A stretch of DNA of 27,306 bases, from the IMG/VR virus record IMGVR_UViG_3300007344_000002, one strand, 5' to 3'. Positions 187-16,442 of this stretch are shown piece after piece. The notes beneath the pieces are model-generated. The model ran no database searches. It was not told the DNA's origin and was given only the letters and a program-made list of their open reading frames with translations. Made by a program: the position numbers and the translations under genes. Position 1 is the first letter of the stretch. The number at the start of each line of letters is the position of its first letter. The DNA comes from an uncultured virus (IMG/VR IMGVR_UViG_3300007344_000002). Lineage: Duplodnaviria > Heunggongvirae > Uroviricota > Caudoviricetes.

Positions 187-417
187 ATGCCGGAAAAAAT
201 GACAAAAGAGGAAGCACAAATTAGTCGAGCAATTAGATTGGTCCGTAAAGCAAAGGAAGTTCTTCAAGAAGAAGGTAGAGAAACTCTACCATTGGAAATA
301 GAAGACCCCGATGTTAAGACTAAGAAGCCAAAGGCAGAAAAAGACGATACTAAGATTGAGAATGATACAGGTACTCATTCCGGATATGGTCTTGCTGGAG
401 ATATTAACGACGCTTGA
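187..417 (+). CDS. small charged hypothetical protein (76 aa)
   Basis: ATG at 187 follows GGAGGA (175-180) and the upstream stop at 185, so it is preferred over the ORF-track start at 172. The product is E/K-rich. Confidence 0.75.
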   Translation: MPEKMTKEEAQISRAIRLVRKAKEVLQEEGRETLPLEIEDPDVKTKKPKAEKDDTKIENDTGTHSGYGLAGDINDA

Positions 418-425
418 GTGATTCG

Positions 426-3353
426 ATGGCGACCACTGGCCTAATGTTCGAGAAGGATAAGGCTCCTTTATCTAACGAAATTTTATCTCTCTTCGAGGAA
501 ACTAGAGTCGCTTATCTATCTGCAAAATCCGACCCCAAAGAGTATGGAGGTCGGTGGAGAAATATACTTGAGAAGATTAAAGAATCGTATGATAGCCTTA
601 GTCCTCTTGGTAAAGAACTCAAAGAATATTTAGATGAGCGTCACCTTGAGGCTGATGATACAGGCAGTCCTACAAGTGGCTCTGCTAAAATCGTCTATGA
701 TTCTGTTAAGCAAATGAGATTCGACTCCGAGAATGTCAACGACCCATTCTCTAAGAAAATGAAAGGTAATGTACTAGAATCTCTACTATCGAATGTAGAT
801 GTTTTTATGAAGTTCATTCACTATGCTATTAGAAATGGTGATGATGCCTTATCTTCTAAACTCTATAATGAATTAGAATATCAAGGTGACGAGATAACTG
901 ATGGTTTGGAAGGACTAGACTTGGCATTAGATGATGTTCCTCTTTTTGTTATTGAACACTACGGCGATGATAAAGATAGTAAGAAGGTGAATTTTAAATT
1001 CAAGAATGCGCTAAAGGAACTCAAGAAGGTATTTTTATCCGGACACTCCGAAGAGGACTGGAGTAAATTAGTTGGAGTAGAATTAAAGAAATCAATGAGT
1101 GCTATGATGGCTCAAGAATTAAAATTCAAAGAAAGAATGGAAAACCCTACTATGAGAGTAGAAGAAAAACCCGATGTGACTCAAAATGTAGCAGTAGTTG
1201 AAATGGATGCTGATGTTTCGGGAGATTGTTGCGAGCAGTTAAAACAGGACTACATAGAACTCAAACGAGAAATGTTTGAATCGTTTATTGCTCATCATGG
1301 TTCTTGGGAAAAATTTACACAGGAAACTGGCCGCAGGTATGAAGATACTCCGGAAAATGAATTAAAAGAATTAACGGAATACTTTAACTCACTTGACTGT
1401 GAGGCATTGTATGAATTTATTAGTGACATATTTAGCGAGAATACTAGACCCAAAGAACAAGAAATTCTTGATAGATACGAAAGTTGTAATTCCTTTGGTT
1501 CGGACTTTTCGGATAAATACGCTATGCTTAAATCTAAAAAGTCCGAGGAAGAGAAGGCCATCTCCAACTTCCTAACTCCCAACAAACCAATGTATCGTAT
1601 ATTCGATATTGAAGATATGAATGAATTGATGGGATTCTCCGGAGATTATGTCGTACAAGAAAAGTACGATGGAATGAGAATACAAATTCATAAGATTGAT
1701 GATAAAGTTGAAATCTTTTCATTTAACGGTAAGGACATTACTGAAAAATGTACTGAACAAGTAGCAGAAATGAAAAAGAAATCTTATGGCGACTGTATTC
1801 TAGATGCAGAACTAATTCTATTCGATGGTGATAAAGCCCTACATAGAGCAGATACAGTTGCCCATGTATTCAAAAATAAATACCCCGAAGCAAAACTAAG
1901 AGCGCATGTTTTTGACATAATGCGACACGAAGAAAAGAACTTGATGGATGATGAATTACAGATTAGGATTAACATTCTATTCAATAATTACTCGGCAAAG
2001 TCTTCCGATGCCATCGCATTCCCTTCTAAGAAAGATACTAGAATCGCAGATTCTTTGAAAGACATAGAAGAATATGCTAAGGAAATAATGGAGATGCCTA
2101 CTGCGGAAGGAGTTGTTATCAAAGACTTAACTTCTACTTATTTCGTAGGAACTAAGAAAAATCCTAAGTGGATTAAGTGGAAGAAATTTGTAGATTTAGA
2201 TATGCTAGTTCTAGATAAGAAGTCTACTAAGTCAGGTCTATTCTCTTATTCTTTAGGGGCTGGCCCAGTTCTAGAAGAAGGAAAACACATTGTAGAAATG
2301 AATAACAAACTCTACATGAATGTAGGTAAGGCACTAAATACCAAGATAGATGTTAAGGTTGGAGAAGTTATTAGAGTCAAGGTAGATGAAGTAAAAGAAT
2401 CGGATGGTAGATTTACTCTCTATTCTGCTAAGGTAATCGAAGTTCCAGAGGCCGCTACTCCCGATAAGATTGTGACTTTAGAACTACTATCTAAGGATAC
2501 TAAGCCGTCTTTGAAGTACAAAGTAGAAGCACTAAAAAAAGGAATAACAATTACTGATAACATACATGGTAGTGCTACTTTAATCGCTAAGAGCATGGAT
2601 GGATTTACAATTTACGGATTTAATGAAAATAATCTAATGTCGAAGAACGCTATTGCAGACTTAGATATGTGGAAACAAGAAGCAGAGATGGCTCTAAAAA
2701 CCATTCAAGGAAAATTAAGAGCGTCTATTAAGCAGTTTGTAAAAGGAAAGGGCAAGCCACAGACCATAGGAGACTTGCATAATTTTTTGGCTAGTAATCA
2801 TGCAGGGGATTATGAATCAGTTCTAGAAAGCGATAAGAATAGGCTTGGTTCTTGGATACAAGCCTCGGAAGGAATGTCATATAGTGATGGTAAGATTTCT
2901 GTTGACGATAGTGAAATTCAAAAAGAGTCGGAAAAGGCTGAATTTAAAGTCTATTCTAGAAAGGATGGAAACTTGGACTTCATTGTAAATTACAAAGGAG
3001 AGAACTTATCTTGGTATATTGACCTAGACTCCGACGATGATATATTCTCTTTGTTTGGAAAGGCCAATAAATTCCCTGCTCAAATCTCTACAAATGTTTC
3101 AAAGGAGAAATTGATTGACCTTGGAGATGTAGAAATCGGAGTACAAAGACACGGATACCACGAATATATTCTAAATGGAAATAAGTTTGAAACTAAGATT
3201 CACTTTAGAGTAGTTCCTGTAGAAGGCAAGGATATGTGGTTAGCGTGGACAGGATATGAACAGAAGCCTGTTGATAAGGACACTGATGAAGGTATTTGGA
3301 ATATTTATGAAGACAAGTTTAAGGACTTAAAATACACAAAACAACCGAACTAG
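426..3353 (+). CDS. lig: multidomain ATP-dependent DNA ligase (long N-terminal extension, nucleotidyltransferase and OB domains, C-terminal LigD-phosphoesterase-like domain)
   Basis: Ligase motifs: I VVQEKYDGMRIQIHK (Lys at 1662-1664), III ILDAELILF, IIIa AHVFDIM, IV EGVVIK, V WIKWKK..DMLVL, followed by an OB-like region (GEVIRVKVDEV). Start is either GTG 414 or ATG 426; the latter follows GAGTGA. Confidence 0.9.
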   Translation: MATTGLMFEKDKAPLSNEILSLFEETRVAYLSAKSDPKEYGGRWRNILEKIKESYDSLSPLGKELKEYLDERHLEADDTGSPTSGSAKIVYDSVKQMRFDSENVNDPFSKKMKGNVLESLLSNVDVFMKFIHYAIRNGDDALSSKLYNELEYQGDEITDGLEGLDLALDDVPLFVIEHYGDDKDSKKVNFKFKNALKELKKVFLSGHSEEDWSKLVGVELKKSMSAMMAQELKFKERMENPTMRVEEKPDVTQNVAVVEMDADVSGDCCEQLKQDYIELKREMFESFIAHHGSWEKFTQETGRRYEDTPENELKELTEYFNSLDCEALYEFISDIFSENTRPKEQEILDRYESCNSFGSDFSDKYAMLKSKKSEEEKAISNFLTPNKPMYRIFDIEDMNELMGFSGDYVVQEKYDGMRIQIHKIDDKVEIFSFNGKDITEKCTEQVAEMKKKSYGDCILDAELILFDGDKALHRADTVAHVFKNKYPEAKLRAHVFDIMRHEEKNLMDDELQIRINILFNNYSAKSSDAIAFPSKKDTRIADSLKDIEEYAKEIMEMPTAEGVVIKDLTSTYFVGTKKNPKWIKWKKFVDLDMLVLDKKSTKSGLFSYSLGAGPVLEEGKHIVEMNNKLYMNVGKALNTKIDVKVGEVIRVKVDEVKESDGRFTLYSAKVIEVPEAATPDKIVTLELLSKDTKPSLKYKVEALKKGITITDNIHGSATLIAKSMDGFTIYGFNENNLMSKNAIADLDMWKQEAEMALKTIQGKLRASIKQFVKGKGKPQTIGDLHNFLASNHAGDYESVLESDKNRLGSWIQASEGMSYSDGKISVDDSEIQKESEKAEFKVYSRKDGNLDFIVNYKGENLSWYIDLDSDDDIFSLFGKANKFPAQISTNVSKEKLIDLGDVEIGVQRHGYHEYILNGNKFETKIHFRVVPVEGKDMWLAWTGYEQKPVDKDTDEGIWNIYEDKFKDLKYTKQPN

Positions 3354-3365
3354 TTAAATAGTGTA
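3351..3365 (+). promoter_or_regulatory. possible archaeal TATA-like promoter upstream of the protease/capsid genes
   Basis: TTAAATAG at 3355-3362 lies about 30 nt upstream of ATG 3391, in one of the few intergenic gaps. No SD is seen before ATG 3391, which is compatible with a leaderless transcript. Confidence 0.3.
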
Positions 3366-3390
3366 TTTACAACAAGACGGCTTGAGCATC

Positions 3391-4566
3391 ATGTCTATGA
3401 TTATGTCTGCAATGGAGGAGAATGATTTCTCCATCTTGAAGGCATCGAATGATGATTTAATGATTGGCGGCTATGCTTCTATCGAAATGGTAGATAAGCA
3501 AAACGACTTAATCACTCTAAAGGCCCTAAATGAGGCAGTTAAGAAATTCATGGGACATAATAAGTTCCGCAATGTAATGACTAACCACTCCAATGTTCAA
3601 GTTGGAGAAGTAGTTGAATCTCATAGAGATAGCAATGGAAAACTATGGAAGACCCAAGTAGATGATGTTGGGTTCTTCGTAGTAATTAAATTAAGAGATG
3701 ATATTGAAAAAGCAAAGGAAATAAACCGAGGAATTCGCAAAGGGTCGTTGAGGTCTTTTAGCATAGGTGGGCAAGCACTACAAAAAGTGAAGAAACACCA
3801 TGATGATTTAGGGGAGTATAGTGAGATAAGCAAACTAGAACTTCACGAAGTCACAATATGCGAAAAAGGTATCAACCCCGAAGCGAGGTTCGATATATTA
3901 AAGGAGGACAAAACAATGAACAAATTAGAAAAAGCATTGGCTGAACTAGATACTCTTCTAGAAGAAGTTAATACTCTACGAAAAGAAGAAGAAGAACCGT
4001 CAATGGAGCGAGGCGCACCTCACCCATTGGACGAGAAGATGGAAGATGAAATGATGGATACCGAGTCTATGGAATACATGGATGAAGCAAAGAAGGCCAC
4101 TACTCTCGACGGAAACGATGAGACTAACCTTGGCGGTGCTGGAGAATACATTGAAGATGCCGGAGAACAAGCAAAGAAAGAAGGAATGGTTTCAAAGAAC
4201 TTCACTAATGATGAGTTTAGAACCCTTAACCTAAGTTCAGCAAACATCGAGAAGGCTTACGAGCAATACCGAGCAGAACAACTTGAAAAGATGGGACTCG
4301 AAACTCTAGAAGAAACCTTCGCTAAGAGATTCGCTAAGGAAGAAAGCCACCGAGCAGAAATGGTCGCTAAGGCAGAATACGATGCACAATCGGAAATCGC
4401 ACGACTTAACGCAGAGTTCTCCGAACTCCGTAAGTCACTTACAGAAGAAAAGAACACGATTCGCAAGGCTACAGAAGCCGCAACAACAACTAAGGTTTTC
4501 TCAACAGAAGAGATTGCTGACATGAGTTGGAGCGACATTCACAAAGCCGTTGGCGGAAATATTTGA
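3391..4566 (+). CDS. prohead (maturation) protease, HK97/S78-like, fused to a C-terminal scaffold
   Basis: Protease motifs IGGYAS..VDKQNDLI, MTNHSN..VG (His), LRSFSIGG (Ser) and LELHEVTICEKGINPEARF. An acidic coiled-coil tail follows. The gene is directly upstream of the MCP. Start ATG 3391 preferred over GTG 3361. Confidence 0.9.
   Translation: MSMIMSAMEENDFSILKASNDDLMIGGYASIEMVDKQNDLITLKALNEAVKKFMGHNKFRNVMTNHSNVQVGEVVESHRDSNGKLWKTQVDDVGFFVVIKLRDDIEKAKEINRGIRKGSLRSFSIGGQALQKVKKHHDDLGEYSEISKLELHEVTICEKGINPEARFDILKEDKTMNKLEKALAELDTLLEEVNTLRKEEEEPSMERGAPHPLDEKMEDEMMDTESMEYMDEAKKATTLDGNDETNLGGAGEYIEDAGEQAKKEGMVSKNFTNDEFRTLNLSSANIEKAYEQYRAEQLEKMGLETLEETFAKRFAKEESHRAEMVAKAEYDAQSEIARLNAEFSELRKSLTEEKNTIRKATEAATTTKVFSTEEIADMSWSDIHKAVGGNI
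3916..4566 (+). CDS. scaffolding protein from a nested in-frame internal start (216 aa)
   Basis: AAGGAGG at 3901-3907 precedes an in-frame ATG at 3916, exactly at the end of the protease domain. The product MNKLEKALAELDTLLEEVNTLRK... is helical and acidic. Confidence 0.65.
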   Translation: MNKLEKALAELDTLLEEVNTLRKEEEEPSMERGAPHPLDEKMEDEMMDTESMEYMDEAKKATTLDGNDETNLGGAGEYIEDAGEQAKKEGMVSKNFTNDEFRTLNLSSANIEKAYEQYRAEQLEKMGLETLEETFAKRFAKEESHRAEMVAKAEYDAQSEIARLNAEFSELRKSLTEEKNTIRKATEAATTTKVFSTEEIADMSWSDIHKAVGGNI

Positions 4567-4576
4567 GGTGAATTAA

Positions 4577-5923
4577 ATGGGATACATTAACACAATTAGA
4601 GACTTAGAAGCGGCGACATACGGACTACCTGCCTTTGGTGGAAACTCTGTATTGAAACAAGCAGGTGCAGTTCAAGGACTACACACTGCACACGATATTG
4701 CAGACGCTGGCGCAAGCGGCTTGACTGGTATCGGTACTACAACTGGATACTACAACCAACTTTACGGACAGAAAGTTTGGTCAATGCTAAACCGAGAAGT
4801 AAATGCTCTCGCTATGCTATCAAAGCGACCTTACACTTCTTCCGGTTGGAGAATTCTTAAGAGCCGACCATTTGGTGGTTCCGGTTCTACTCTAGCAGTT
4901 GATATTACAGGTGACGGTTCATCAGCAAACGGTATTGGTGGAGATAACCCACACGCTGACGAAATTGGTGGTGTTCCAGAAAACGCAGGACTTTCTACTG
5001 CGGCTGACGGACTTGGCTCTATGGCCCCAACTTACGCTCAACTCTTTATGAGTCCTAAAACCATTGCACATCAGTTCGATATTTCCGAACTAGCAATGGA
5101 AATGGCTCAAATTGATGATGGACTCGGTGATATTCGGGCTATTATCCGTGAAGATATGGGTAAAGCACACGCAGAAGCACAGAACAAGATGCTCCTTATG
5201 CCTCTACAAGTTTATGGTGAAGTTTCCGCTCTAGCAAACATTGAGCGAAACTACACTTCCTTGATGAAGGTTGTTTCAAGCCGAGCAGAACTTCTAGCGG
5301 CTGACGGTGGAGTTCTTATGACCGATACAATGAATGATGCTACAAACAATCTTGCTCAAATCTATGGCGATGAGCGATTTACTGCGGCTTCTTTCCTTGA
5401 TGCAGAAATAGACTTCAACAGTTCTTACGCCGCATCTTCGGTTCGACCACTAACTCTTACTTTGCTTAACAACATGATTCGTAATCTACGAATTGCTGGC
5501 GGTTCTCCAAAGGTTATCTTGACTGGATACGATACTATCCAAGCAATTGCAGACCTACTACAGTCCCAAGAGCGATTCATGGACCGAAAGGAAATCGTTC
5601 CTACTCATAATGGTGTTCGTGGTATTAGGGGTGCAGAAGTTGGTTTCCGTGTGGCAACCTACTACGACATTCCATTGATTCCTGTTAAGGACATGGCTTC
5701 AACCCTAAACGCTTCCGATAGTGGAATTAGCGACTTGTTGTTCTTGGATACTGACCATCTATGGCTCTCTGTTCTTAAGCCGACTCAATACTTTGAAGAC
5801 GGTGTTTCTAACGGAAACCCATTCGGTGTGGGACGACTCGGCAACCAAGCACTTTACCGAACTATTGGTGAAGTTGGTTGCTCTTTCTTCAAGGGACAAG
5901 GCAAGATTACCAATGTGGCTTGA
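4577..5923 (+). CDS. major capsid protein, HK97 fold
   Basis: 448 aa, after the protease/scaffold, with SD GAGGTGA. HK97-type segments: PKTIAHQFDISELA, LTLTLLNNMIRNLRIAGGSPKVILTG, TYYDIPLIP, LLFLDTDHL. Confidence 0.9.
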   Translation: MGYINTIRDLEAATYGLPAFGGNSVLKQAGAVQGLHTAHDIADAGASGLTGIGTTTGYYNQLYGQKVWSMLNREVNALAMLSKRPYTSSGWRILKSRPFGGSGSTLAVDITGDGSSANGIGGDNPHADEIGGVPENAGLSTAADGLGSMAPTYAQLFMSPKTIAHQFDISELAMEMAQIDDGLGDIRAIIREDMGKAHAEAQNKMLLMPLQVYGEVSALANIERNYTSLMKVVSSRAELLAADGGVLMTDTMNDATNNLAQIYGDERFTAASFLDAEIDFNSSYAASSVRPLTLTLLNNMIRNLRIAGGSPKVILTGYDTIQAIADLLQSQERFMDRKEIVPTHNGVRGIRGAEVGFRVATYYDIPLIPVKDMASTLNASDSGISDLLFLDTDHLWLSVLKPTQYFEDGVSNGNPFGVGRLGNQALYRTIGEVGCSFFKGQGKITNVA

Positions 5924-5932
5924 GGTGATAAA

Positions 5933-6526
5933 GTGACAAACGCTGTTACTTTAATCGCTGACCATAAAGGTATAGCAAAGCCATTCGTTGTGGGACACCA
6001 ATATGTTTCACTAGCGAGTGTTGCTGTTTCGTCTTACCGAACAGGCTCCCCTGCTACTGCCGCTAGTCAAACTATTACTGCGGCTGATGCTGACCCTGAT
6101 ACACTAACAAGAGGTGCTGGTAGTTATCTTACTGATGGCTTTGCCGCAGGTGACTATGTGACTATTCTCGGCTCTGCTTCGGCAAACAACTCACAAGTCT
6201 TTGAGATTGCTACGCTAACTGCAACCGTTCTAACAACATCGGGACCAACTGCTCTTTCCGCTAACACCGGCAATGCAGATGAACAAGTTCTCCATGTTGG
6301 TGAAAAACTATTGGCGGCTGACTTCGGTTTGGCATCCTTCACACAAGTTGAGATTTCTAACCCATCTTTGTTGGATGCTCACTGGATTGTTGGTGACATT
6401 AGTTCGGATGGTACATACTGCTACCTTTACTGCTTCACTCTTGGTTCGGCGGCTAACACTGCCGGAGTTAAGGCTCTAGCAGACGACTTGGGAACTCTAC
6501 GAGTTCGTGCAACAGGACTTCTTTGA
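5933..6526 (+). CDS. putative capsid decoration/minor head protein with an inserted beta domain
   Basis: GTG start after GAGGTGA, immediately downstream of the MCP. A/T/G/S-rich, with a beta module (TLTRGAGSYLTDGFAAGDYVTILGS...VFEIATLTATVLT). Confidence 0.55.
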   Translation: MTNAVTLIADHKGIAKPFVVGHQYVSLASVAVSSYRTGSPATAASQTITAADADPDTLTRGAGSYLTDGFAAGDYVTILGSASANNSQVFEIATLTATVLTTSGPTALSANTGNADEQVLHVGEKLLAADFGLASFTQVEISNPSLLDAHWIVGDISSDGTYCYLYCFTLGSAANTAGVKALADDLGTLRVRATGLL

Positions 6527-6535
6527 GGTGTTTGT

Positions 6536-6946
6536 TTGGCAACCATCCGTTTAAGCGAGTCTTGTAAGGTTCCAACCTTGAGACTACGAAACGGGGTAGA
6601 GGGTTTTATGGAAGTGACGAAGGCTGAGACTATTACAATCTCGGCCTTCGTTGCTTCACATTACATTGGGGGTAAGAACTGCGTAGTTCAATTTACTTCC
6701 GAGGATAGAGAGGAAATCGAAAAATTACCTAACCGTGAAAAAGAAATCCTATCTAAATACCTTAGAGTCCCCAAAGAAACATTGGCTAATACCTTAGCCC
6801 CACTTCCTCCAAAAACAACAGTTCCGGAGAAATTGAAGGCTACTGCAAAGAAGGCTACCCGAAAGTCTACTAAGAAACCTGCCGCTAAAAAGGCAACTAC
6901 TAAGAAGACTACTACCAAGGCAGAACCCACTACAGAAGAAGAGTGA
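6536..6946 (+). CDS. hypothetical protein with a histone-H1-like Lys/Ala/Thr-rich tail
   Basis: TTG start after GAGGTG. C-terminus KATAKKATRKSTKKPAAKKATTKKTTTKAE. Confidence 0.7.
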   Translation: MATIRLSESCKVPTLRLRNGVEGFMEVTKAETITISAFVASHYIGGKNCVVQFTSEDREEIEKLPNREKEILSKYLRVPKETLANTLAPLPPKTTVPEKLKATAKKATRKSTKKPAAKKATTKKTTTKAEPTTEEE

Positions 6947-6999
6947 TTACACAACCTTCATTAAGAGGGGCTAATTACCAACATCTAAGAAGTGATGTT

Positions 7000-7299
7000 A
7001 TGGCAGATACATGCAGAAGCAGTGGAGTCCTTGGGGCAAGCGCAATAATTTCTAAGACGCAGTGCAGATTGAAAAGCATTCACGCTAACATTGTTATTGC
7101 TAGCAATGCGGCAGTGACCGTTAAAGTGTTTGATGGACAAGATAATAGCGGTACAGAAATTGCTAGAATTCACAATACGACCACAGGACAGTATAATCTA
7201 GAATATGATATGCACGGTGTATTATGCACTAGCGGTATATTTTTGGAAATAGCAGAAGCCGGTTCTTCCACTGCACACATTTCAGTGGAATTTAATTGA
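7000..7299 (+). CDS. small beta-rich putative virion protein (99 aa)
   Basis: ATG 7000 after GAAGTGA is preferred over the ORF-track start at 6943. The sequence alternates short beta-strand-like segments. Confidence 0.65.
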   Translation: MADTCRSSGVLGASAIISKTQCRLKSIHANIVIASNAAVTVKVFDGQDNSGTEIARIHNTTTGQYNLEYDMHGVLCTSGIFLEIAEAGSSTAHISVEFN

Positions 7300-7308
7300 G
7301 GTGGTTAA

Positions 7309-7707
7309 TTGCCAGCATTGAATCACGACACTCGATTGATTATGACTATCCTATTCGTAGGTACAGTTAGTGGAGCGAATGTTTTCTTCTACGCTAAATT
7401 CGGTTTGAACTTTCCATATACCATTCTAATGCACGGCGTATTGTTTGGACTCATTACAGTAGGGTCCGTTATGGTAATGAAGGCACTATTTGACTTGGCT
7501 CTTAATGACAAAATTGAGATGTGGCTTTTGGACAGAAGGATTACTGCTTATTGGCAAAGAATCGCTAAAGATGAACAACAAAGAAAGAAGATGCAAGATT
7601 CTTTGAAGACATTTCAAAACGAAAATCAAACTAATAGAATACCCCAAATTTCTCCGCAATATGAAACTGAGGGAGTTTCAGCCGATTTCTTAGCCACCCT
7701 GCAATGA
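7309..7707 (+). CDS. membrane protein, two TM helices plus C-terminal coiled coil (holin-like architecture)
   Basis: Hydrophobic segments LIMTILFVGTVSGANVFFYA and ILMHGVLFGLITVGSVMVMKALF, then charged WQRIAKDEQQRKKMQDSLK. TTG start after GAGGTGG. Confidence 0.7.
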   Translation: MPALNHDTRLIMTILFVGTVSGANVFFYAKFGLNFPYTILMHGVLFGLITVGSVMVMKALFDLALNDKIEMWLLDRRITAYWQRIAKDEQQRKKMQDSLKTFQNENQTNRIPQISPQYETEGVSADFLATLQ

Positions 7708-7716
7708 GGTGGTTGA

Positions 7717-7947
7717 ATGGTTCTTGGCGACATAATGGGTTTCAGTGACTCCGACTATGCTTATAATCAACAAAGAGCGCATTCTGCTGATTTGTTTTTT
7801 ATTAAAATGAGAGCATGGTTTTGGGGCGGTTGTTCTACTTTATTTTTTTTCTTGGTAGGTAATATAATAGGTGTCGTTTTCGACATTAGTATTATGGGTT
7901 GGCTCATAGATAAGACAGTAAGTTTTTGGGATTATTTATGGCATTGA
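7717..7947 (+). CDS. small membrane protein (76 aa)
   Basis: Hydrophobic segment AWFWGGCSTLFFFLVGNIIGVVFDISIMGWLI and a Trp-rich amphipathic end. SD GAGGTGG. Confidence 0.7.
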   Translation: MVLGDIMGFSDSDYAYNQQRAHSADLFFIKMRAWFWGGCSTLFFFLVGNIIGVVFDISIMGWLIDKTVSFWDYLWH

Positions 7948-7956
7948 GGTATTCAA

Positions 7957-8619
7957 ATGTCTGTTCTAGCCGGTTTTGCTGTAGTTTGTATTGAAGCAAC
8001 AGTGGCATTTTACAAGAGAATTCACGCTATCCAATTTGGAGTCTACGGGGCTACAATGGTAGGTAAGACTACTTTACATCATCAACTTAGAACGAGAGGC
8101 GAAGTACCGGAAATTAGAGATAGAACTGTAGGTAGGCAAAGGGCTTCTAGAAAAACAATTAAGATGGACGGAGATACCCACACTGTTAAGACCGCAGATA
8201 TGGGTGGGGAAGCAATTTATTGGAAGCAGTGGATTGACGATATACGAAGTAGAAATGTCAAATATGTCATTTTTGTAGTAGACCATAGACATTTAGATTC
8301 TGCCGCTAATTTAGACCATCAACTTGCATGGAAGTTTTTAGTTGATGCTATTTGTAGTCAAACTTGGCCCAATGGTAAAAAGAAAAAGAATACCGATTAC
8401 CCCCTAGCCGTTGGTATTTGGGCTAACAAGTATGACATTTGGGGAGATAAATACAAGGAAGATGTGGATATTTCTAAGCATTCAATCTTCGCTCCATTTA
8501 AATATGGGATGCAACAGTTAAACGATAAGGGAATACCAACTTACAAGTATATTATTTCCGCTAAATCTCAGCCGGAAATGGTCTACAAGGGCGTTATTAC
8601 AATGATAAAGGATTACTGA
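7957..8619 (+). CDS. Ras-superfamily (Arf-like) small GTPase
   Basis: G1 GATMVGKTT (8047-8073), G2 RTVG, G3 DMGGE (8197-8211), VIFVVD strand, G4 NKYD (8425-8436), G5 SAK (8557-8565), and an N-terminal hydrophobic helix. Confidence 0.88.
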   Translation: MSVLAGFAVVCIEATVAFYKRIHAIQFGVYGATMVGKTTLHHQLRTRGEVPEIRDRTVGRQRASRKTIKMDGDTHTVKTADMGGEAIYWKQWIDDIRSRNVKYVIFVVDHRHLDSAANLDHQLAWKFLVDAICSQTWPNGKKKKNTDYPLAVGIWANKYDIWGDKYKEDVDISKHSIFAPFKYGMQQLNDKGIPTYKYIISAKSQPEMVYKGVITMIKDY

Positions 8620-8623
8620 TATT

Positions 8624-9163
8624 ATGTGGAAGGATATTTTAAAAGTGGACAGATTCACTAATGAAGGGGGATATAAAGGGGTCTATGATAAACAAACTGA
8701 TGAGGTTTTAATCAACTTAGATAATTTTAATACAGTAGCAAGAGGCTATGACGATATGGAAAGAGTTGTTGAGTTTGCTAATGTAGTGACGCATGAATTA
8801 TCCCACAGAGAATATGCAAAAGAATTAGGCAATAGCATGGATACAGTTCTTAAGGAATTGGACTCTATAGTTAAACAGTATGCAGAAGGTAATGCAACAT
8901 TAGATTCTATTGGTGAAAAACTTAAAATTTTCTATAACTATGCTATTATCAATGAGTCATTTGCATTTGGAAGCGGAAAGGACTACGAAAGATTGAGTCA
9001 TTTAGATGGAACAAAAAGTTCAGTTAGGTCTGTAATGTCTCAGGTTAATAATCACATTAGAAAACTAGTAGGTAAAAAAGACAGGCAGTTGGAAAAAATG
9101 TTGTCTAGGCTTTATGATGAAACCATGAGAGCAATTAGAAAGGTAAGAGATGGTAGCGCATAG
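8624..9163 (+). CDS. zincin-like metallopeptidase with an MWKDILK leader
   Basis: HELSH (HExxH) at 8792-8806, preceded by a G-x-Y...V-x-I-N strand pair. Candidate third ligand in INESFA. The gene looks AT-rich by eye. Confidence 0.7.
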   Translation: MWKDILKVDRFTNEGGYKGVYDKQTDEVLINLDNFNTVARGYDDMERVVEFANVVTHELSHREYAKELGNSMDTVLKELDSIVKQYAEGNATLDSIGEKLKIFYNYAIINESFAFGSGKDYERLSHLDGTKSSVRSVMSQVNNHIRKLVGKKDRQLEKMLSRLYDETMRAIRKVRDGSA

Positions 9164-9207: not shown

Positions 9208-9837
9208 ATGTTTCAACAGCCCAACCTAATCGCCAACAATCCTAGTCTTGCTAGTTCGTTCTTGCCTCCTCTAATGAGCGCAAGAGCCGCAGGTCCGGTT
9301 TCCGAATATTCTTTCGTACAAATTAAACCAAAGAAGATGCTGAAAGAGATTACCAAAGTACTCAATGCAGAAAAAAAGAAATTCTTATTCATCAAGTACG
9401 GCTGGAAATTTAATCTAAAAGACCGTTGTGTTGTCTGTGGTGTCCACCATGTTTGGGATAACGGAGATTACATGAGGCCACCTATTCCCCTAAGCCATGT
9501 GACTAAAGGTAGGCCGATGCGAGGTACTTACTGTCCCAAACACGCTACACATCACAGACAACTGGAAATGCTACAACAACAGATACTAGCAGATGAGCAT
9601 GGTCTTGATTTCAAAGCGTTTATTCCAAAGCCTAGAATGCCCCAAGTTTTATCTAAGGGACCACTTACCACACTATCAAAGGCCGATGTTATTTCTCTAG
9701 CGGCGATTGGTTGGGCGATAAGTCCACCCAAAACCGAAGGAGAAGAAAAACCCATTGAAGAATTAAACAGACTCTCCTTAGAAATACGATTGGCAAGCGA
9801 AAGAATGGGCGAAATTATAAAAAAAGGTGAACAATGA
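9208..9837 (+). CDS. putative zinc-binding protein with a C-terminal coiled coil
   Basis: CVVC (9427-9438) and CPKH (9532-9543) pairs, Pro-rich linkers, helical C-terminus. SD GAGG. Confidence 0.65.
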   Translation: MFQQPNLIANNPSLASSFLPPLMSARAAGPVSEYSFVQIKPKKMLKEITKVLNAEKKKFLFIKYGWKFNLKDRCVVCGVHHVWDNGDYMRPPIPLSHVTKGRPMRGTYCPKHATHHRQLEMLQQQILADEHGLDFKAFIPKPRMPQVLSKGPLTTLSKADVISLAAIGWAISPPKTEGEEKPIEELNRLSLEIRLASERMGEIIKKGEQ

Positions 9838-10484
9838 TGGGCGTTTTTGGAACAAGCAATACAGCAGTTATGGGCGCAGTACAAGCGCAGAATGATACTC
9901 AATTTAAGACGGTCAATAATCTTCTGTCTTTACAAGAGAACCATGTGGAAGAGTTCTTTCAATATCATGGTGAACAGTTCTTATCTAGTTTGGAGCAGTT
10001 GATGGAAGATGTAATTGATAGGAGCGTTAGTAAGATGCTCACTAAATTAGAGTTCTATCAAGATTCTACTACTGGAAACATGAAGGTTAGTAGTGATAGT
10101 CTAAGAGAATACGAACAGATTACTCAAGAAAATATTGACTTGGATATGAACGCTATCTTAAATTCTGCCATCAATTCGGAAATTATCAATCAAAGAAAAA
10201 TGGCTAAACAACAATACCTAGAATCACAAGGATTTAGTGGAGCATCTAATCCCGCACAAGGTATGCCTCAACAACCAATTCAACAAGGAACATATGGAGC
10301 AACAGGGCTAGCAATGAACAACGGAAGCGGCTACCCTATTCCTCCTAGTGGACAAGACAACTATGGTAGGCCATATTGGATTGACCCAAGCACAGGACAA
10401 ATGAGTTATGAGCCTCCACAAAGCGGATTACACCTAGCCCAAAAAGCACAGAAATTAGCGGCTTGGGGCAAGTGGCTAATGTGA
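9834..10484 (+). CDS. helical protein with a Gln/Pro-rich linker and a C-terminal WW-like motif
   Basis: Overlaps the upstream stop (ATGA), SD GGTGA. C-terminal IPPSGQDNYGRPYWIDPSTGQMSYEPP followed by an amphipathic end LAAWGKWLM. Confidence 0.7.
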   Translation: MMGVFGTSNTAVMGAVQAQNDTQFKTVNNLLSLQENHVEEFFQYHGEQFLSSLEQLMEDVIDRSVSKMLTKLEFYQDSTTGNMKVSSDSLREYEQITQENIDLDMNAILNSAINSEIINQRKMAKQQYLESQGFSGASNPAQGMPQQPIQQGTYGATGLAMNNGSGYPIPPSGQDNYGRPYWIDPSTGQMSYEPPQSGLHLAQKAQKLAAWGKWLM

Positions 10485-12095: not shown

Positions 12096-13399
12096 TGCCA
12101 GTTGCATCCTCCCCCAGTGACTATACCTCGATTAACCCAAACTATGCTACAGGGCAAGGATTCTATACAGATATTGGAGCAGTATCGGATTTACTACAGG
12201 TGACTCCATTTACTTCCGGTACTAATCCATCTGCCGCACAAGTCGGCTCAATCATTAAGAGAATAGAAGGAATGGTTGATGAGAAAATTAACCGTTCTTA
12301 TCGACCTATCATTTGGAAGAATGAGTTCAAGGATTTTGAATTTACTCGCCATCCAATAATGTCTTATTATGGAGGCTATGTAGGATTTATACAACTGCAA
12401 CAGATGAAGATTAGAAAGATTGTAAGTCTAAGAGTTTGGGAAGGAAACGCCTATCGAGAATTGGCTTCTGCTCAAGCCTCGATTACTCTCCTAGAAAACT
12501 TTAGAGATATTCATTCTCTTATTTTCCAACTACCTAATAGTGGGGTTTCTTTTGAACTGTTAGCAGAAAACGATGTTTCCGCTTTAGCAAACGATGAGTT
12601 TTGTACTACCTTCGGAATAAAGACTACCAATAATGAAATTGTTGATTTGATTAACGAAAAGTTTCCATCGAACACCTCCCAATTTACAGGAGCAACTGCT
12701 TCAAAGGAACTATCATCTAGTAATCTCAATGTTTCCGATTTTTTCTTCTCGCAGAAAGACGACCAAGACGGTACTAAAGTCTTAATTTCATCTTTATTAT
12801 CCGGTGATGATGGAGCAGGTTGCACACTAAAGGCTACTATTCAACAGTCCTGTACTACTAGTAATACTAGCACTAGTTTAACTGTAGCCGATTCTAGTAA
12901 ATTAGCAGTAGATATGGAAGTCACAGGAACTAATATTCCTTCTTCTACTACTATTTCTTCTATTGATACTTCAACTACTGTCACTCTTTCTAAAGCCGCT
13001 ACGGGTTCTGCATCAAGCACACTAACCTTTACCACTACCAATGAAATCCCCACAGTTTGTTCTCTTGTAGCCTTTACTGACAAAGAAGATATGAAGCGTT
13101 TGGGCGACTTTTGGATGATGAGCGATGATGGAAGAATCTTCTTTTTGAAGAAGTATCCTTATCATAATAAGAACTCAATCATTGTTTCTTATGTTGCTGG
13201 TGATGGAAGAGTACCTTCTACAGTTCACGAAGCCACTACCAAATTAGTAGCGGCAGAAATTCTACGACATGACGACCAAACAATAATGATTGCTGAAACC
13301 GGAGCAAACATATCAGCGAAGGAAAAGTACGATTTACTTCGTGCAGAAGGCTTGGCTCTTATTGATGGTAAGAAAGACTTAGTGTATATGTTGGATTGA
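12095..13399 (+). CDS. putative head-tail adaptor/connector with inserted domains
   Basis: N-terminal YTDIGAVSDLL...IIKRIEGMVDEKINRSY and C-terminal IIVSYVAGDGRVPSTVHEATTKLVAAEIL resemble SPP1 gp15/HK97 gp6-like adaptors. Position is between head and tail genes. Confidence 0.65.
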   Translation: MPVASSPSDYTSINPNYATGQGFYTDIGAVSDLLQVTPFTSGTNPSAAQVGSIIKRIEGMVDEKINRSYRPIIWKNEFKDFEFTRHPIMSYYGGYVGFIQLQQMKIRKIVSLRVWEGNAYRELASAQASITLLENFRDIHSLIFQLPNSGVSFELLAENDVSALANDEFCTTFGIKTTNNEIVDLINEKFPSNTSQFTGATASKELSSSNLNVSDFFFSQKDDQDGTKVLISSLLSGDDGAGCTLKATIQQSCTTSNTSTSLTVADSSKLAVDMEVTGTNIPSSTTISSIDTSTTVTLSKAATGSASSTLTFTTTNEIPTVCSLVAFTDKEDMKRLGDFWMMSDDGRIFFLKKYPYHNKNSIIVSYVAGDGRVPSTVHEATTKLVAAEILRHDDQTIMIAETGANISAKEKYDLLRAEGLALIDGKKDLVYMLD

Positions 13400-13404
13400 T
13401 TGGT

Positions 13405-13914
13405 ATGTGGAAAAACATATTAAAAAATAACAGTGGTGGTAAAACTCACATTCCTTATCACACTAAAGTAGAATTTATGAATGGTTTGTATCGGGAACTT
13501 TATGATACAATAGAAAGAAAGGAAGGACTTGAGGGTTTTGAGTTCAACAATGGAATGATTTATTTTCCTAATTACATATTGAGTTTTAACCCAAATGTTG
13601 GTCGTCATAATGACGACTTTATACCAAAACCATTTGAAGAAATACAAATAATATTAGATGTAGATTGGTATGATTTGTGGTATAGAGGGTTTGAAGACGA
13701 AATAAATGAAATTGCTGATGGTTTTGGCGAAGAATACAGATTAAAAGCAGAAGACCAAGGCGTTCATCCTGTTTATGAATACAATGCAGGTTCTCACAAT
13801 AATGAAGCCGGTGGTACAATTAGTGTGTTTTCAAAAACCTCTAATTCATTCATTGAGTCTTTAATTAAAAACATTCATAAAAAAATAGAAAGTAAATTTG
13901 ACGGAAGGGATTGA
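13405..13914 (+). CDS. hypothetical protein with an MWKNILK leader (169 aa)
   Basis: ATG 13405 is preferred over TTG 13396. AT-rich gene lying between neck genes; no catalytic motif recognised. Confidence 0.7.
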   Translation: MWKNILKNNSGGKTHIPYHTKVEFMNGLYRELYDTIERKEGLEGFEFNNGMIYFPNYILSFNPNVGRHNDDFIPKPFEEIQIILDVDWYDLWYRGFEDEINEIADGFGEEYRLKAEDQGVHPVYEYNAGSHNNEAGGTISVFSKTSNSFIESLIKNIHKKIESKFDGRD

Positions 13915-13915
13915 T

Positions 13916-14107
13916 ATGTTGAAGATTACTGAAACTCTAAACTCTTTGATAGATAAACACAAAGAGCGTCAATTAGAAATGGAAAGAGTTTCTACTATTC
14001 TAGGAATTGACATTTCTTTCTCGGATGAAGAATTGGCTAGGTTCATTGAAGAAGATTTAGAAAAGGCAATCTCTCAATCAATAATGGAGGAAATGGTCTA
14101 TGGATGA
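13916..14107 (+). CDS. small acidic helical protein (63 aa)
   Basis: ATG 13916 follows GGAAGGGA and the upstream stop at 13914. The end overlaps the next gene's start. Confidence 0.65.
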   Translation: MLKITETLNSLIDKHKERQLEMERVSTILGIDISFSDEELARFIEEDLEKAISQSIMEEMVYG

Positions 14108-14819
14108 AGTCACTCTAATTCTAGATTTATTGGATAACAATTGGTCTTCTTCTGCCACTACCCTAAACCAAGCCGGTACTATTCCAGTAGCATTGCCTAA
14201 GCCAAACCTAGTCGATGTTAGAACTTTAGAGAAGGGGCAGGGTGCTAGGTATGACCTTTCTAGCAAAGATGTAATTGTAGTTTTTGAGGATGGCAACACC
14301 ATAGAATATCCTACGGTTCTTTATGATGTTCGCAACGAATCCTATACCTTCACACTACACCTTCGTTGTATTCACGATGAGAGAGCCGTTGGTACTTCGC
14401 TCACAGGTTCGGGAGGAGCATACACAACAGGCAGTACCAACATGACCCTTACTTCAACTTCGGGTATCGCAGTAGGCATGGAGGTCACAGGTACAGGAAT
14501 TCCAGATGGTACAACAGTATCTAGTATCACGAATAGCACTACTCTTGTTCTATCGGCTACACCAACTAAGGCAAGAACTGGACAGTCTATTAAGTTCAAT
14601 TCAAGAGATTCTAATTACGGAAGAGATAGGTTAAGGTCTTTATACTTGATACTTCGTCATGCACTTGAGAGCAAACGACGGGGTTATACTGCAAGCGATG
14701 GTTCACACTTTAGTTTATTAGAAGTTGGAAATCGAAGCGAAGCAAATGACAGAAAGAAACGACTCTTTGGATATAAAGTGACATTAACGGCAAAGAGATA
14801 CGCACAGACAATCCCCTAG
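14100..14819 (+). CDS. putative tail terminator/completion protein with an inserted beta module
   Basis: Lies immediately before the tail tube, SD GGAGG. Alpha/beta pattern (DVIVVFED...YTFTLHLRC...LRSLYLILRHALE...FGYKVTLTA) is interrupted by a T/S/G-rich insert. Confidence 0.6.
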   Translation: MDEVTLILDLLDNNWSSSATTLNQAGTIPVALPKPNLVDVRTLEKGQGARYDLSSKDVIVVFEDGNTIEYPTVLYDVRNESYTFTLHLRCIHDERAVGTSLTGSGGAYTTGSTNMTLTSTSGIAVGMEVTGTGIPDGTTVSSITNSTTLVLSATPTKARTGQSIKFNSRDSNYGRDRLRSLYLILRHALESKRRGYTASDGSHFSLLEVGNRSEANDRKKRLFGYKVTLTAKRYAQTIP

Positions 14820-14846: not shown

Positions 14847-16442
14847 ATGACGAACAATAATATATTTTTAGGAAGCGGTGCATCGGTGACATTTGTTCCC
14901 GAAGTTGATTTATACATTGAATCTAACAGTAATACAATTGATAATAGCGTGACGGGATATAGCACTGTCACTATTGATACTAATTTTACTGGAAACTTTT
15001 CCTTAGTCATTGACTTGTATGTTGGTTGTATCATCGAATACTACGACAATGCGGCCCTAACTTCTCGGCATAGAATCACTTCCAATACAGCCACCACTAT
15101 TACCTTCGCAACACAAATTCAAGGAACCATTGATGCTACCAACGATTTCTTTAGAATCAAGAGATATGGCGCACCTTGTCCAGCCCCTAAATCTTCCAGT
15201 GGTTCTGCGGCTAGACTAAATGCTGATAATTGGCTTGGCATTATTGATTCTCTTACCTTCCCCGATAATGAAATAGAAACTAAGCAGACTAATTTAATGG
15301 TTGGTGGTTCTAGAAACTACACCTATCAATACAAAGGAATTGAAACTGCTGGTTCTGCTGATATAGGAGTTATGGCTAATCACGGCGCATGGTTGTACTA
15401 TTTCTTTGGAAAGATTACAGATATTCACGAAGGTTTGGATGCTAGTGGAAGCACCGTCACCTATGCGGCAGATGCGGCAGGTTCTCCCGCTCACTACATA
15501 GCAACAACTACCAATACTCACATTATTGAAGTGACTCCCGAACATACTGGACCTTTCTATTATCGAACCTTAACCGAAGGAGGAACTACCAAAATTATCG
15601 TCCCTCCTGTTGTTAGAGGACATGACTCGGAAAGTGACATGAAGAGAATTACTGCACCTGCTGAACATACAGATGGTTCAATCATTAACGCAATTACTTA
15701 CACCTTTGGAGAACAAGATGGAGAAGATTTACCCTCCTTCGCCTTAGAACAGTCCTTCTCCAAACTGCCTTCTACGAACACATATAGAACCAATAACGCT
15801 AACGCAGATGAAGATTTGAACTTCGTTAGAATTGCTAGAGGAAACCGAGTCAATACTCTAACTCTTACTGCTAATGAAAACGAAGAACTCAAGATGAGTA
15901 TGAATTTAATGTGTAGAAATGTTCATTCTCTAGCCAAAACTGAATTGTATGAGGCAAGAAGAGGAGTGACAGATGAAACACAATTCATCAATTATTCTTC
16001 TACTGATTCTTTCCGAGAACCATTCTTTTTCTCGGATGGTACAATCAATATGTTTGGACAAGAACTATTGAAGATTACTAACTTTACTTTAACAATGAAT
16101 AACACGCTCACAGATAAGAGATTTATTGGCGTTGGAAGTCGTAAAGTAAAGGATGCTATTCCAGCACAAAGAACTTACGAAATGACCTTTAGTGCTATGG
16201 TCACTGACGATAAACTCTACAATGAATTACTAAATACTAGCGAAACAACAGGAAGCAACATTACCCTAAGTTTCACTAAAGGAAACGGCGAGGCAATTAA
16301 CTTGGCGTTTGACAATTATTTCCTAACGACTAACTCTTGGCCTATGCCGGAAGACAAAGGGCCTGTGGTCGTAGAAGGTACAATTATGGCTAGAAGCATA
16401 GGAACTTGTACTGCTAAAACTCACTGGATTCTACAGGGGTGA
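14847..16442 (+). CDS. major tail (tube) protein with extra domains
   Basis: Tube-like C-terminal half: LPSFALEQ, GNRVNTLTLTA, PFFFSDGTI, ITNFTLTMNNTL, RTYEMTFSA. It precedes the chaperones and tape measure. Confidence 0.8.
   Translation: MTNNNIFLGSGASVTFVPEVDLYIESNSNTIDNSVTGYSTVTIDTNFTGNFSLVIDLYVGCIIEYYDNAALTSRHRITSNTATTITFATQIQGTIDATNDFFRIKRYGAPCPAPKSSSGSAARLNADNWLGIIDSLTFPDNEIETKQTNLMVGGSRNYTYQYKGIETAGSADIGVMANHGAWLYYFFGKITDIHEGLDASGSTVTYAADAAGSPAHYIATTTNTHIIEVTPEHTGPFYYRTLTEGGTTKIIVPPVVRGHDSESDMKRITAPAEHTDGSIINAITYTFGEQDGEDLPSFALEQSFSKLPSTNTYRTNNANADEDLNFVRIARGNRVNTLTLTANENEELKMSMNLMCRNVHSLAKTELYEARRGVTDETQFINYSSTDSFREPFFFSDGTINMFGQELLKITNFTLTMNNTLTDKRFIGVGSRKVKDAIPAQRTYEMTFSAMVTDDKLYNELLNTSETTGSNITLSFTKGNGEAINLAFDNYFLTTNSWPMPEDKGPVVVEGTIMARSIGTCTAKTHWILQG

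Follow-up and report, generated by a model that had tools for sequence, protein, structure and literature searches.

What does a small GTPase do among the head and tail genes of an archaeal head-tail virus? The question is raised by an open reading frame (ORF) at positions 7957-8619 of a stretch of DNA of 27,306 nt from an uncultured virus (IMG/VR IMGVR_UViG_3300007344_000002; Caudoviricetes), which was analysed as one strand at its full length and is called the window below. The ORF starts with ATG, encodes 220 amino acids (aa) and lies on the + strand amid an uninterrupted series of genes of the same orientation. Since the closest named relative of its product, 'hypothetical protein QKV95_gp088' (71% identity), belongs to Poseidoniales virus YSH_150918, the source of the window is identified by sequence as a magrovirus. 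Magroviruses make up the order Magrovirales and are head-tail viruses of Marine Group II archaea (ICTV profile, PMC10768690). The protein is, from its sequence, a virus-specific and very divergent variant of the Arf-like GTPases in a new genetic context; it is encoded by a core gene of these viruses, and a function at the host membrane is proposed for it here.

A divergent G-domain

The translation agrees exactly with the peptides quoted in an earlier note on this DNA, which had read the ORF as an Arf-like small GTPase: MSVLAGFAVVCIEATVAFYKRI (residues 1-22), TADMGGEAIYWKQW (79-92), YVIFVVD (103-109) and IWANKYD (154-160). The protein has the Ras-superfamily motif order G1 (GxxxxGK[ST]), G3 (DxxG) and G4 (NKxD). 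Conservation was counted over 160 viral ORFs reduced to 120 unique sequences, which fall into three clades sharing only 24-36% identity, namely the window type, the 136-type (P0136) and the 137-type (P0137). The G1 motif or P-loop is G31-ATMVGK-T38 (positions 8047-8070, + strand as for all features given here), with G31, G36 and K37 invariant in 120/120 sequences, as is T39. Switch I holds R56-T57 (8122-8127), likewise invariant in 120/120 and comprising the probable G2 Thr with an adjoining Arg; as G2 is a single residue this assignment is uncertain, S64 being the alternative. G3 and switch II (8197-8232) consist of D81-MGG84, E85 at the position of the catalytic Gln, and W92; D81, G84 and W92 are invariant, and so is D109 further on. 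G4 is N157-K-Y-D160 (8425-8436) followed by W162, with N157, K158, D160 and W162 unchanged in 120/120, and G5 is S201-A-K203 (8557-8565), whose A202 and K203 occur in 56/56 window-type sequences and are replaced mostly by T-K in the 136-type. Of the five G-boxes that the earlier note had reported, G1, G3, G4 and G5 are present and G2 is found only as a candidate.

The HMM search proposed in that note gave two different answers. Taken alone, the window protein stayed under all cut-offs of Pfam (SRPRB 19.2 bits, cut-off 25, E 8.1e-4; MMR_HSR1 17.6, cut-off 21.9; Roc 17.6, cut-off 27) and NCBIfam (small_GTP 25.1 bits, cut-off 42.5), had no match in PHROGs and found a single match in the PDB by phmmer, the G-domain of centaurin-gamma at E 0.66. 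The family profile, in contrast, matched G-domains: an alignment of 26 sequences (A2) retrieved 1185 distinct PDB sequences at E ≤ 1, of which the best 60 are nearly all G-domains, led by 8oun_A (3.3e-10) and followed by mini-Gq, EhRabX3, Arl3, Gs-alpha, Rab33B and Arl8. AlphaFold2 on the same alignment yielded the G-domain fold, with a six-stranded beta sheet and five helices, that a structure prediction had been suggested to look for, with pLDDT 88.4 and pTM 0.84 and the strand-helix order of small G-domains behind an N-terminal helix (residues 2-22). Comparison of this model with small GTPases gave Z up to 18.7 at an rmsd of 2.4 Å over 162 residues, and 1000/1000 re-ranked PDB chains reached Z ≥ 8. 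By sequence and model, ORF 7957-8619 encodes a G-domain protein that is intact and constrained, and the invariant motif residues suggest that the predicted switch binds and hydrolyses GTP.

Relationship to the Arf family

When the 1000 best Foldseek chains were re-ranked, ranks 1-29 were all Arf or Arl proteins in GTP-type states (Z 17.8-18.7), and the Arf family took 40 of the best 50 rows. The rmsd of the Arf/Arl rows was 2.4-2.6 Å for most, over about 160 residues with 19-23% identity, and Arf1 on membrane tubules (8s5c) was matched at Z 18.5. Arf proteins have an interswitch toggle, a register shift of two residues between the GDP and GTP forms, and the single predicted conformation resembles GTP-state Arfs. 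Near the top of a wide structural search stood Arf6 (Z 18.1), SR-beta (17.8), Sar1 (17.2), Arl2 and Gs-alpha, mixed with LokiRagO and a mimivirus Rab. Furthermore, a Trp at +11 from the G3 Asp is a feature of Arf, Sar and G-alpha and is not known from Ras and Rab; W92 lies at +11 from D81 and aligns in the profile alignments with the Trp of GerdArfR1 and of mini-Gq. The switch-II signature of Arf is DxGGQ, of which D81, G83 and G84 are present together with W92, the Gln being Glu in the window type. With the Arf family (Arf1, Arf6, Arl1, Arl3, Arl6, Arl8 and the Asgard protein GerdArfR1, 8OUN/8OUM) the viral GTPase has in common the G-domain fold, DxGG, the invariant Trp at +11 and a hydrophobic-VVD strand. 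The alignment with GerdArfR1, the best profile match, extends into the N-terminal helix of that protein; 8OUN is GerdArfR1-GDP, an Asgard Arf-family GTPase, according to the sections of bioRxiv 10.1101/2024.02.28.582541 used here.

Distant relatives lead in the same direction. From the window protein phmmer reached P0160 (2.5e-8), P0165 (5.5e-7) and P0180 (3.4e-4), and these three distant relatives exceed the Pfam Arf cut-off with 57.2, 27.2 and 24.5 bits vs 22.3. The Arf-positive proteins that form this bridge are very few, since only 4 proteins were reached with a profile built from five distant members and only 3 with P0208; P0160 and P0165 had no relatives on viral contigs. In a language-model feature search the nearest non-viral clusters were prokaryotic 'G domain' clusters, partly with Pfam Arf, which we take as a lead only.

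Several observations speak against filing the protein under Arf. The window protein has no match to Pfam Arf (PF00025, cut-off 22.3 bits) even at E ≤ 0.1, a level at which 8/26 family members match Arf and 11/26 match SRPRB. Foldseek ranking alone puts Rab1/Rab33 first; after re-ranking the first Rab appears at Z 17.8 vs 18.7 at the top, and a gap below 1 Z is a tie by the rule of the tool. Likewise, Arf6, LokiRagO, SR-beta, mimivirus Rab and Sar1 are intermixed within 1 Z in the wide search. Profile, structure and the Trp at +11 support the Arf/Arl/Sar/SR-beta/G-alpha group as the nearest known relatives. The protein is nevertheless read only as 'Arf-like', membership of the Arf family not being established, because the Pfam Arf match is missing, Foldseek ranks Rab first, the Z gap between Arf and Rab is below 1 and the N-terminal helix is not amphipathic.

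This helix comprises residues 1-19 (7957-8013) and is followed by K20 and R21. Its first 18 residues are uniformly hydrophobic (Kyte-Doolittle (KD) mean 2.05, Eisenberg hydrophobic moment 0.10), with KD values of 1.87-2.05 for residues 1-19 across the hydropathy scans, and in the model it spans residues 2-22 at pLDDT 63-71. E13 within the helix and Lys or Arg at positions 20 and 21 occur in 56/56 window-type sequences. A hallmark of Arf is an amphipathic N-terminal helix for nucleotide-dependent membrane binding, as stated in the sections used of bioRxiv 10.1101/2024.02.28.582541. The hydrophobic helix noticed earlier is present, but its comparison with Arf does not hold, the low moment marking it as non-amphipathic. 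Because it is uniformly hydrophobic and then continues with Lys/Arg, it looks like a fixed membrane anchor that would leave the G-domain in the cytoplasm, as in SR-beta.

The similarity to SR-beta concerns the whole architecture. SR-beta carries an N-terminal transmembrane (TM) anchor before its G-domain, and the viral protein likewise has a predicted membrane anchor followed by an Arf-like G-domain, with 2fh5_B matched at Z 17.8 and 2.3 Å rmsd over 163 residues. However, it remains at 19.2 bits vs a cut-off of 25 for SR-beta (PF09439), no SR-alpha/SRX-like partner is recognised among its neighbours by Pfam, and SR-beta is a eukaryotic housekeeping protein, which the viral GTPase is not. From Arf it differs in its viral gene, the missing Pfam Arf match, the hydrophobic and non-amphipathic helix, Glu for the catalytic Gln in the window type, an invariant Arg beside the Thr of switch I, about 12 extra residues (TWPNGKKKKNTDYP) inserted before G4, an identity of only 19-23% and its own set of partners. 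The small GTPases of giant viruses (mimivirus Rab, 5xc5, Z 17.7 to the model) are also virus-encoded G-domains of the Ras superfamily. They are recognisable Rab, Ran or Arf orthologues acquired from eukaryotic hosts, whereas the present protein comes from a head-tail virus of archaea, lacks a close counterpart in cells among the sequences searched and bears a putative membrane anchor.

The replacement of the switch-II Gln by Glu, reported in the earlier note, applies to the whole window type: E85 is found in 56/56 unique sequences. Position 85 is Q43/E12/D7 in the 136-type (n=62) and His in 2/2 sequences of the 137-type. The residue at the catalytic position is Gln in Arf and His in Sar1/SR-beta; the chemistry at this site, as read from the alignment, varies between the viral clades as it does between Arf and Sar1/SR-beta. 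Arg56 stands directly before the switch-I Thr57 in 120/120 unique sequences. A catalytic Arg that acts in cis is present in switch I of MglA and of G-alpha, and Arg56 could accordingly be a built-in arginine finger, an idea that lends itself to testing.

Distribution, conservation and selection

A word-indexed search gave 353 relatives at E ≤ 0.001 among 821 candidates. Among the 120 matches listed of these 353, identity was 66-97% and length about 220 aa; four of the 120 are named 'GTPase SAR1 family protein' by JGI, the others being unnamed or 'hypothetical'. An exhaustive phmmer search over 1.84 billion cluster representatives returned only 62 matches at E ≤ 0.001. Their lengths did not exceed 277 aa, many being fragments, and no ordinary cellular Arf, Ras or Rab was among them. 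In IMG/VR, relatives of the GTPase were found on 212 stretches of the window type, 81 of the P0136 type (contigs up to 118 kb) and 4 of the P0137 type. No match to P0001, P0136 or P0160 was found by tblastn in 50,697 deposited phage records, a set that may omit near kin of the window genome. The search of 185,579 species-representative prokaryote genomes produced a close relative on one contig only. This contig (L165, NZMJ01000024.1, 12.2 kb) lies in a Maricaulis (alphaproteobacterial) metagenome-assembled genome (MAG), carries a GTPase copy of 68% identity and is probably a mis-binned magrovirus fragment. Among the 1.84 billion representatives and 185,579 genomes searched, the sequences contain no close cellular donor.

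Gene conservation was followed in 80 loci fetched with the GTPase, the count for each gene covering those loci that reach its position. Every such locus contains the neighbouring genes at 6943-7299 (78/78), 7309-7707 (79/79), 7717-7947 (79/79), 9208-9837 (67/67) and 9834-10484 (64/64). With a median identity of 72.7% across related loci the GTPase is second within the module to the capsid protein (75.3%). A second set of 80 loci was fetched with the capsid protein to remove ascertainment bias, some of its contigs overlapping the first set. In all 45 of its loci with at least 3.5 kb beyond the capsid gene the GTPase gene is present on the same strand, 1616-2392 nt downstream, and on account of this 45/45 the GTPase gene is a core gene of magroviruses. 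It is also under strong purifying selection: the median dN/dS was 0.10 for 63 unique window-type genes (307 evaluable of 400 sampled pairs) and 0.075 for 50 pairs with dS < 1. A sporadic capture without conservation in related viruses had been named in the earlier note as the finding that would speak against its reading; the gene was instead conserved and syntenic in all related loci examined and recurs in two more clades.

The five-gene cassette

The GTPase is the third gene of a cassette. Gene 1 (7309-7707) encodes a 132-aa membrane protein with predicted TM helices at residues 10-28 and 39-57 and a charged, hydrophilic C-terminal tail of 75 residues; the median charged fraction after the last TM segment is about 0.30 in 58 unique window-type pairs. 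Gene 2 (7717-7947) encodes a 76-aa protein with one TM-like helix at residues 42-60 and ends 10 nt before the GTPase start. Across 150 loci with two upstream + strand ORFs, a TM segment was called in the -2 gene in 149/150, the -1 gene was above the TM threshold in 115 and below it in 35, and a median of 1 nt separated the -1 gene from the start of the GTPase.

Two orphan families follow downstream. Gene 4 (9208-9837), called A, encodes 209 aa with the signature C-x-x-C/D-G ... G-T-Y-C-P-x-H; C74, G78, G101, T107, C109 and P110 do not vary among the 13 aligned sequences, which represent three clades (alignment A4), and the signature is probably a metal site. The model of A has a pLDDT of 63.7, with a core at residues 41-135 of 80-88, and its best structural Z is 4.3. 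Gene 5 (9834-10484), called B, encodes a Gln/Met/Gly-rich protein of 216 aa that starts with MG(L/V/I)(F/L)G and has a central ITQENIDL/SPENLAL block between Gln/Met/Gly-rich flanks (alignment A3). Neither A nor B found a match in Pfam (E ≤ 0.01), PHROG, NCBIfam, PADLOC or PDB profile searches. Two candidate identities were tried. For A as an ArfGAP-like zinc finger there is neither a Pfam nor a PDB profile match, and the structural neighbours at Z 4.3 are helical hairpins found with a moderate model, which is no evidence either way. B was considered as PspA/Vipp1/ESCRT-III-like on the resemblance of MGLFG to MGLFD; it has no Pfam match at E ≤ 0.01, and its best PDB profile match (E 0.09) is an unrelated FAK-paxillin construct.

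The order of a 2-TM protein, a 1-TM protein, the GTPase, the Cys/His protein and the Gln-rich protein is kept in three virus clades. In 82/84 distant-clade loci the GTPase alone of 21 window proteins was detected by tblastn, A being detected in 4 loci, B in 1 and the capsid protein in none; homology of A and B across clades is weak but collinear in BLAST and clear in alignment. In 136-type viruses the cassette lies between an ORF of 2203-3034 aa and the large terminase gene, and a further 2-TM mini-protein is encoded after its last gene. With this small ORF after B (81-86 aa with two TM-like helices; L083:12378-12638, L085:12312-12566, L102:12398-12643) the 136-type cassette may count six genes.

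A variable slot lies between the GTPase and A. It is empty in 36/61 window-type loci and holds 1-3 ORFs in the remaining 25. The slot ORF of the window (8624-9163, 179 aa), found in 8/69 loci and no fixed part of the cassette, starts with MWKDILK and contains HELSH, an HExxH-type motif. The tag MWK(D/N)ILK opens 9/31 slot ORFs and is common to this ORF and another variable one at 13396-13914 (5/51 loci).

The location in a tailed-virus structural operon, as the earlier note had it, is borne out. Upstream lie a prohead protease (3361-4566) and the major capsid protein (4577-5923), with several small ORFs between the capsid gene and the cassette region. Downstream follow a tail-tube-like gene (14847-16442) and then a tail assembly chaperone, a tape measure protein and a 2159-aa ORF, all on the + strand.

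Proposed function

The egress machinery of archaeal tailed viruses is called 'still completely uncharacterized' in the sections of PMC10791045 used here, which name no identified holin or other player, state that cultured archaeal head-tail viruses lyse their hosts and also discuss the host protein OapA. A constrained switch with a hydrophobic N-terminus, tightly linked genes for TM proteins, two co-inherited partners, a site in the late block and core status together point to a virus-encoded machine at the host membrane that would act late in infection. A membrane role becomes likelier because the flanking genes encode membrane proteins; the GTPase may plausibly take part in egress or in the remodelling of membranes. 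The switch for the timing of assembly or egress put forward in the earlier note is kept as a hypothesis.

The mechanism we propose is as follows. The protein would be a working guanine-nucleotide switch of the Arf/Sar/SR-beta-like branch, tethered by its N-terminal hydrophobic helix to the cytoplasmic face of the host membrane. Its action would fall late in infection, which is proposed because it is co-encoded with the head and tail genes. There it would serve as the regulatory subunit of a viral membrane module that contains the 2-TM protein, the 1-TM mini-protein, the Cys/His protein (probably metal-binding) and the Gln-rich protein. Virus exit would be the likeliest task of this module: in its GTP state the switch would bring the soluble proteins A and B to the two membrane proteins, or license them to act there, and would set the moment at which the host membrane and S-layer are disrupted or remodelled. 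GTP binding and hydrolysis, membrane anchoring, physical interaction with the neighbours, late expression and the part in egress are what we infer. The explanation by egress control as a whole is advanced tentatively, with rather less than an even chance in its favour, and the egress step itself is doubtful.

The resemblance to holin cassettes is of a general kind. According to the part of PMC10791045 cited here, the only marks of a holin are a small size, one or more TM segments and a charged hydrophilic C-terminal tail, and the protein encoded at 7309-7707 fits this loose description by its sequence. It can be called holin-like by these generic features only; it belongs to no PHROG, Pfam, NCBIfam or PADLOC family, and none of its neighbours has a family match indicating a lysin. 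Holin cassettes and the viral block share small proteins with one or two TM segments and a charged hydrophilic tail, the late region and accessory genes alongside. They differ in that the block lacks any endolysin or spanin match and any PHROG holin family. To our knowledge, no lysis cassette with a small GTPase has been described. The place of the 136-type cassette, behind the giant ORF and ahead of the terminase, is counted in favour of egress; in many siphoviruses the lysis genes follow the tail fibre genes.

The following points weigh against a function in egress. Searches of the five cassette proteins in Pfam, PHROG, NCBIfam and PADLOC gave no match to holins, endolysins, spanins, PspA/ESCRT-III, ArvB/ArvC or any defence family, and no envelope-degrading enzyme is fixed in the cassette. 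The TM segments are called by a simple hydropathy threshold, and in the 136- and 137-type clades the helix of the GTPase itself has a lower hydrophobicity (KD 1.0-1.3). The window-type cassette stands between genes of head-completion size and tail genes, a place that fits a role in assembly or in the virion equally well. Of four sequencing runs compared, two are true metatranscriptomes (X2 and X3), in which contigs fall on the protease and capsid genes of relatives and none on the GTPase at a likeness of at least 88%. A 416-nt contig on 7988-8403 comes only from X1, whose status as RNA is a guess, and these runs say nothing either way on whether the GTPase gene is transcribed.

Alternative explanations

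The alternative that survives best, though unlikely, is one in which the cassette causes membrane budding or remodelling instead of lysis. The GTPase, A as a Zn-type GAP-like protein and B would then drive vesiculation, membrane proliferation, a compartment for replication or assembly, or non-lytic release. The model for this is ArvA (OapA, HVO_3014) of Haloferax, a euryarchaeal Arf-like GTPase that drives vesicle budding jointly with two other products of its operon; for one of these, a Zn-ribbon protein, a function as GAP has been proposed. The gene order is GTPase, then the OapB/DUF2073 and DUF2072 Zn-ribbon genes (PMC10927574, in the sections used here). The logic of the ArvA-ArvB-ArvC operon, a small Arf-like GTPase with two conserved downstream genes of which one is Cys-rich (same sections of PMC10927574), is met again in the virus, which also shares the N-terminal helix and whose presumed host belongs to the same broad group, the Euryarchaeota. 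That the best structural neighbours of the model are GTP-state Arf/Arl proteins, among them the tubule-bound Arf1, is also in its favour. However, A and B show no detectable homology to DUF2073/OapB or DUF2072: they lack a Pfam match at E ≤ 0.01, and no OapB/DUF2073 or DUF2072 match at this level occurs in the 24 window ORFs. PF09846 (OapB) was not found in the nearest virus record either (G001, a 25-kb fragment that is 28% complete). The viral cassette further adds two upstream membrane proteins, an envelope is not required by tailed viruses, and host lysis is described for the cultured viruses of this kind from archaea (PMC10791045, sections as above). The arrangement GTPase-A-B is a striking functional parallel to the ArvA system, one in which homology is not established.

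Somewhat less probable again is a part in morphogenesis or genome delivery, with the GTPase as an assembly chaperone or a checkpoint at the head-tail or tail stage, or with the TM proteins and their partners as packaged pilot or ejection proteins that form a DNA channel when the virion infects its next cell. The window-type cassette does lie between the capsid and tail-tube-like genes on the same strand and with tight spacing, and some phage ejection proteins have TM helices and are encoded in structural modules. On the other hand, no case in which a small GTPase serves the assembly of a tailed virus is known to us, 0/5 cassette proteins have a PHROG structural family, and the 136-type cassette stands apart from recognisable head genes, between the giant ORF and the terminase.

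An explanation by host takeover or exclusion appears improbable. Here a membrane-bound switch would disturb division, motility, transport or SRP-receptor-like secretion, or would block superinfection. It draws on the combination of an anchor and an Arf-like G-domain, which is the architecture of SR-beta, on SRPRB as the top, if sub-threshold, Pfam match and on the Z of 17.8 to SR-beta. Genes for takeover and exclusion are usually early, variable and dispensable, but the GTPase is conserved like the capsid protein and sited in the late block. PADLOC returned nothing meaningful for the GTPases or the cassette partners and thus no link to defence.

That the gene was captured recently and sporadically from a cell and plays no conserved part in the virus, or that it is decaying, is scarcely credible: nothing speaks for it except that genes of the Ras superfamily are generally rare in tailed viruses, and it is contradicted by synteny and purifying selection, by 62 matches in 1.84 billion representatives without a cellular Arf, Ras or Rab, and by the single hit among 185,579 species genomes on what is likely a mis-binned viral contig.

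Returning to egress control, a bolder version can be formulated. The five-gene block could be the missing exit machine of archaeal head-tail viruses, in which the GTPase, and not holin concentration alone, would time the opening or remodelling of the membrane and S-layer by the two membrane proteins with A and B; the GTPase could at the same time be an old, independent branch near Arf/Sar/SR-beta/G-alpha that has been kept in euryarchaeal viruses outside Asgard. That both parts are true together we consider unlikely.

Prior descriptions and significance

The word 'GTPase' is absent from the main text and supplement of the founding magrovirus paper (PMC5434244), from the main text of the later surveys PMC11706807 (with one supplement file) and PMC10160649, and from the main text of the taxonomy paper on archaeal Caudoviricetes (PMC8651126) and of the paper on environmental viral genomes (PMC5332604). 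The genome-map legend of the ICTV profile (PMC10768690) has no such gene, and the cassette is described in none of the papers compared; the description of YSH_150918 (Zhou et al. 2023, Environ Microbiol) lies outside this comparison. The preprint on Asgard Arfs (bioRxiv 10.1101/2024.02.28.582541) contains zero mentions of viruses.

In the surface ocean, Marine Group II archaea with their magroviruses rank with the most abundant pairs of microbe and virus, and neither partner has been cultured. A core, constrained gene for a predicted GTP switch together with two membrane proteins and two orphan partners provides five defined proteins for the question of exit and, judged by sequence, a definite candidate for the means by which such viruses could affect the host membrane or pass out through it. 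Furthermore, a virus-borne and deeply divergent lineage is added to the Arf-like GTPases, whose prokaryotic history (Asgard ArfR, euryarchaeal ArvA) is now used in the debate on the origin of eukaryotic membrane trafficking. Should the protein be only a generic regulatory GTPase, the result would still allow several hundred 'hypothetical proteins' of marine viromes to be usefully annotated.

Further observations on the locus

The 979-aa ORF (414-3353) that immediately precedes the prohead protease in the same orientation carries an ATP-dependent DNA ligase domain (Pfam PF01068) and is kept in 42/42 loci. The domain covers only residues 409-590 (8.9e-28), and about 400 residues on either side are without assignment. 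Contigs from X2 and X3 run across 3613-6858 with about 90-95% likeness and up to 2.3 kb in one piece; since they cover the protease and capsid genes, close relatives of the window virus are present in these RNA libraries. The tape-measure-like protein (17183-18709) has five TM-like hydrophobic segments within residues 230-413, and the 2159-aa ORF after the tape measure region (20549-27028) has no Pfam or PHROG match. Near the cassette of the 136-type virus L085 are encoded an HMGL-like (HMG-CoA lyase family) protein (13941-14789) and a D12-class adenine methyltransferase (8014-9135), the former corresponding to an auxiliary gene in the ICTV profile (PMC10768690).

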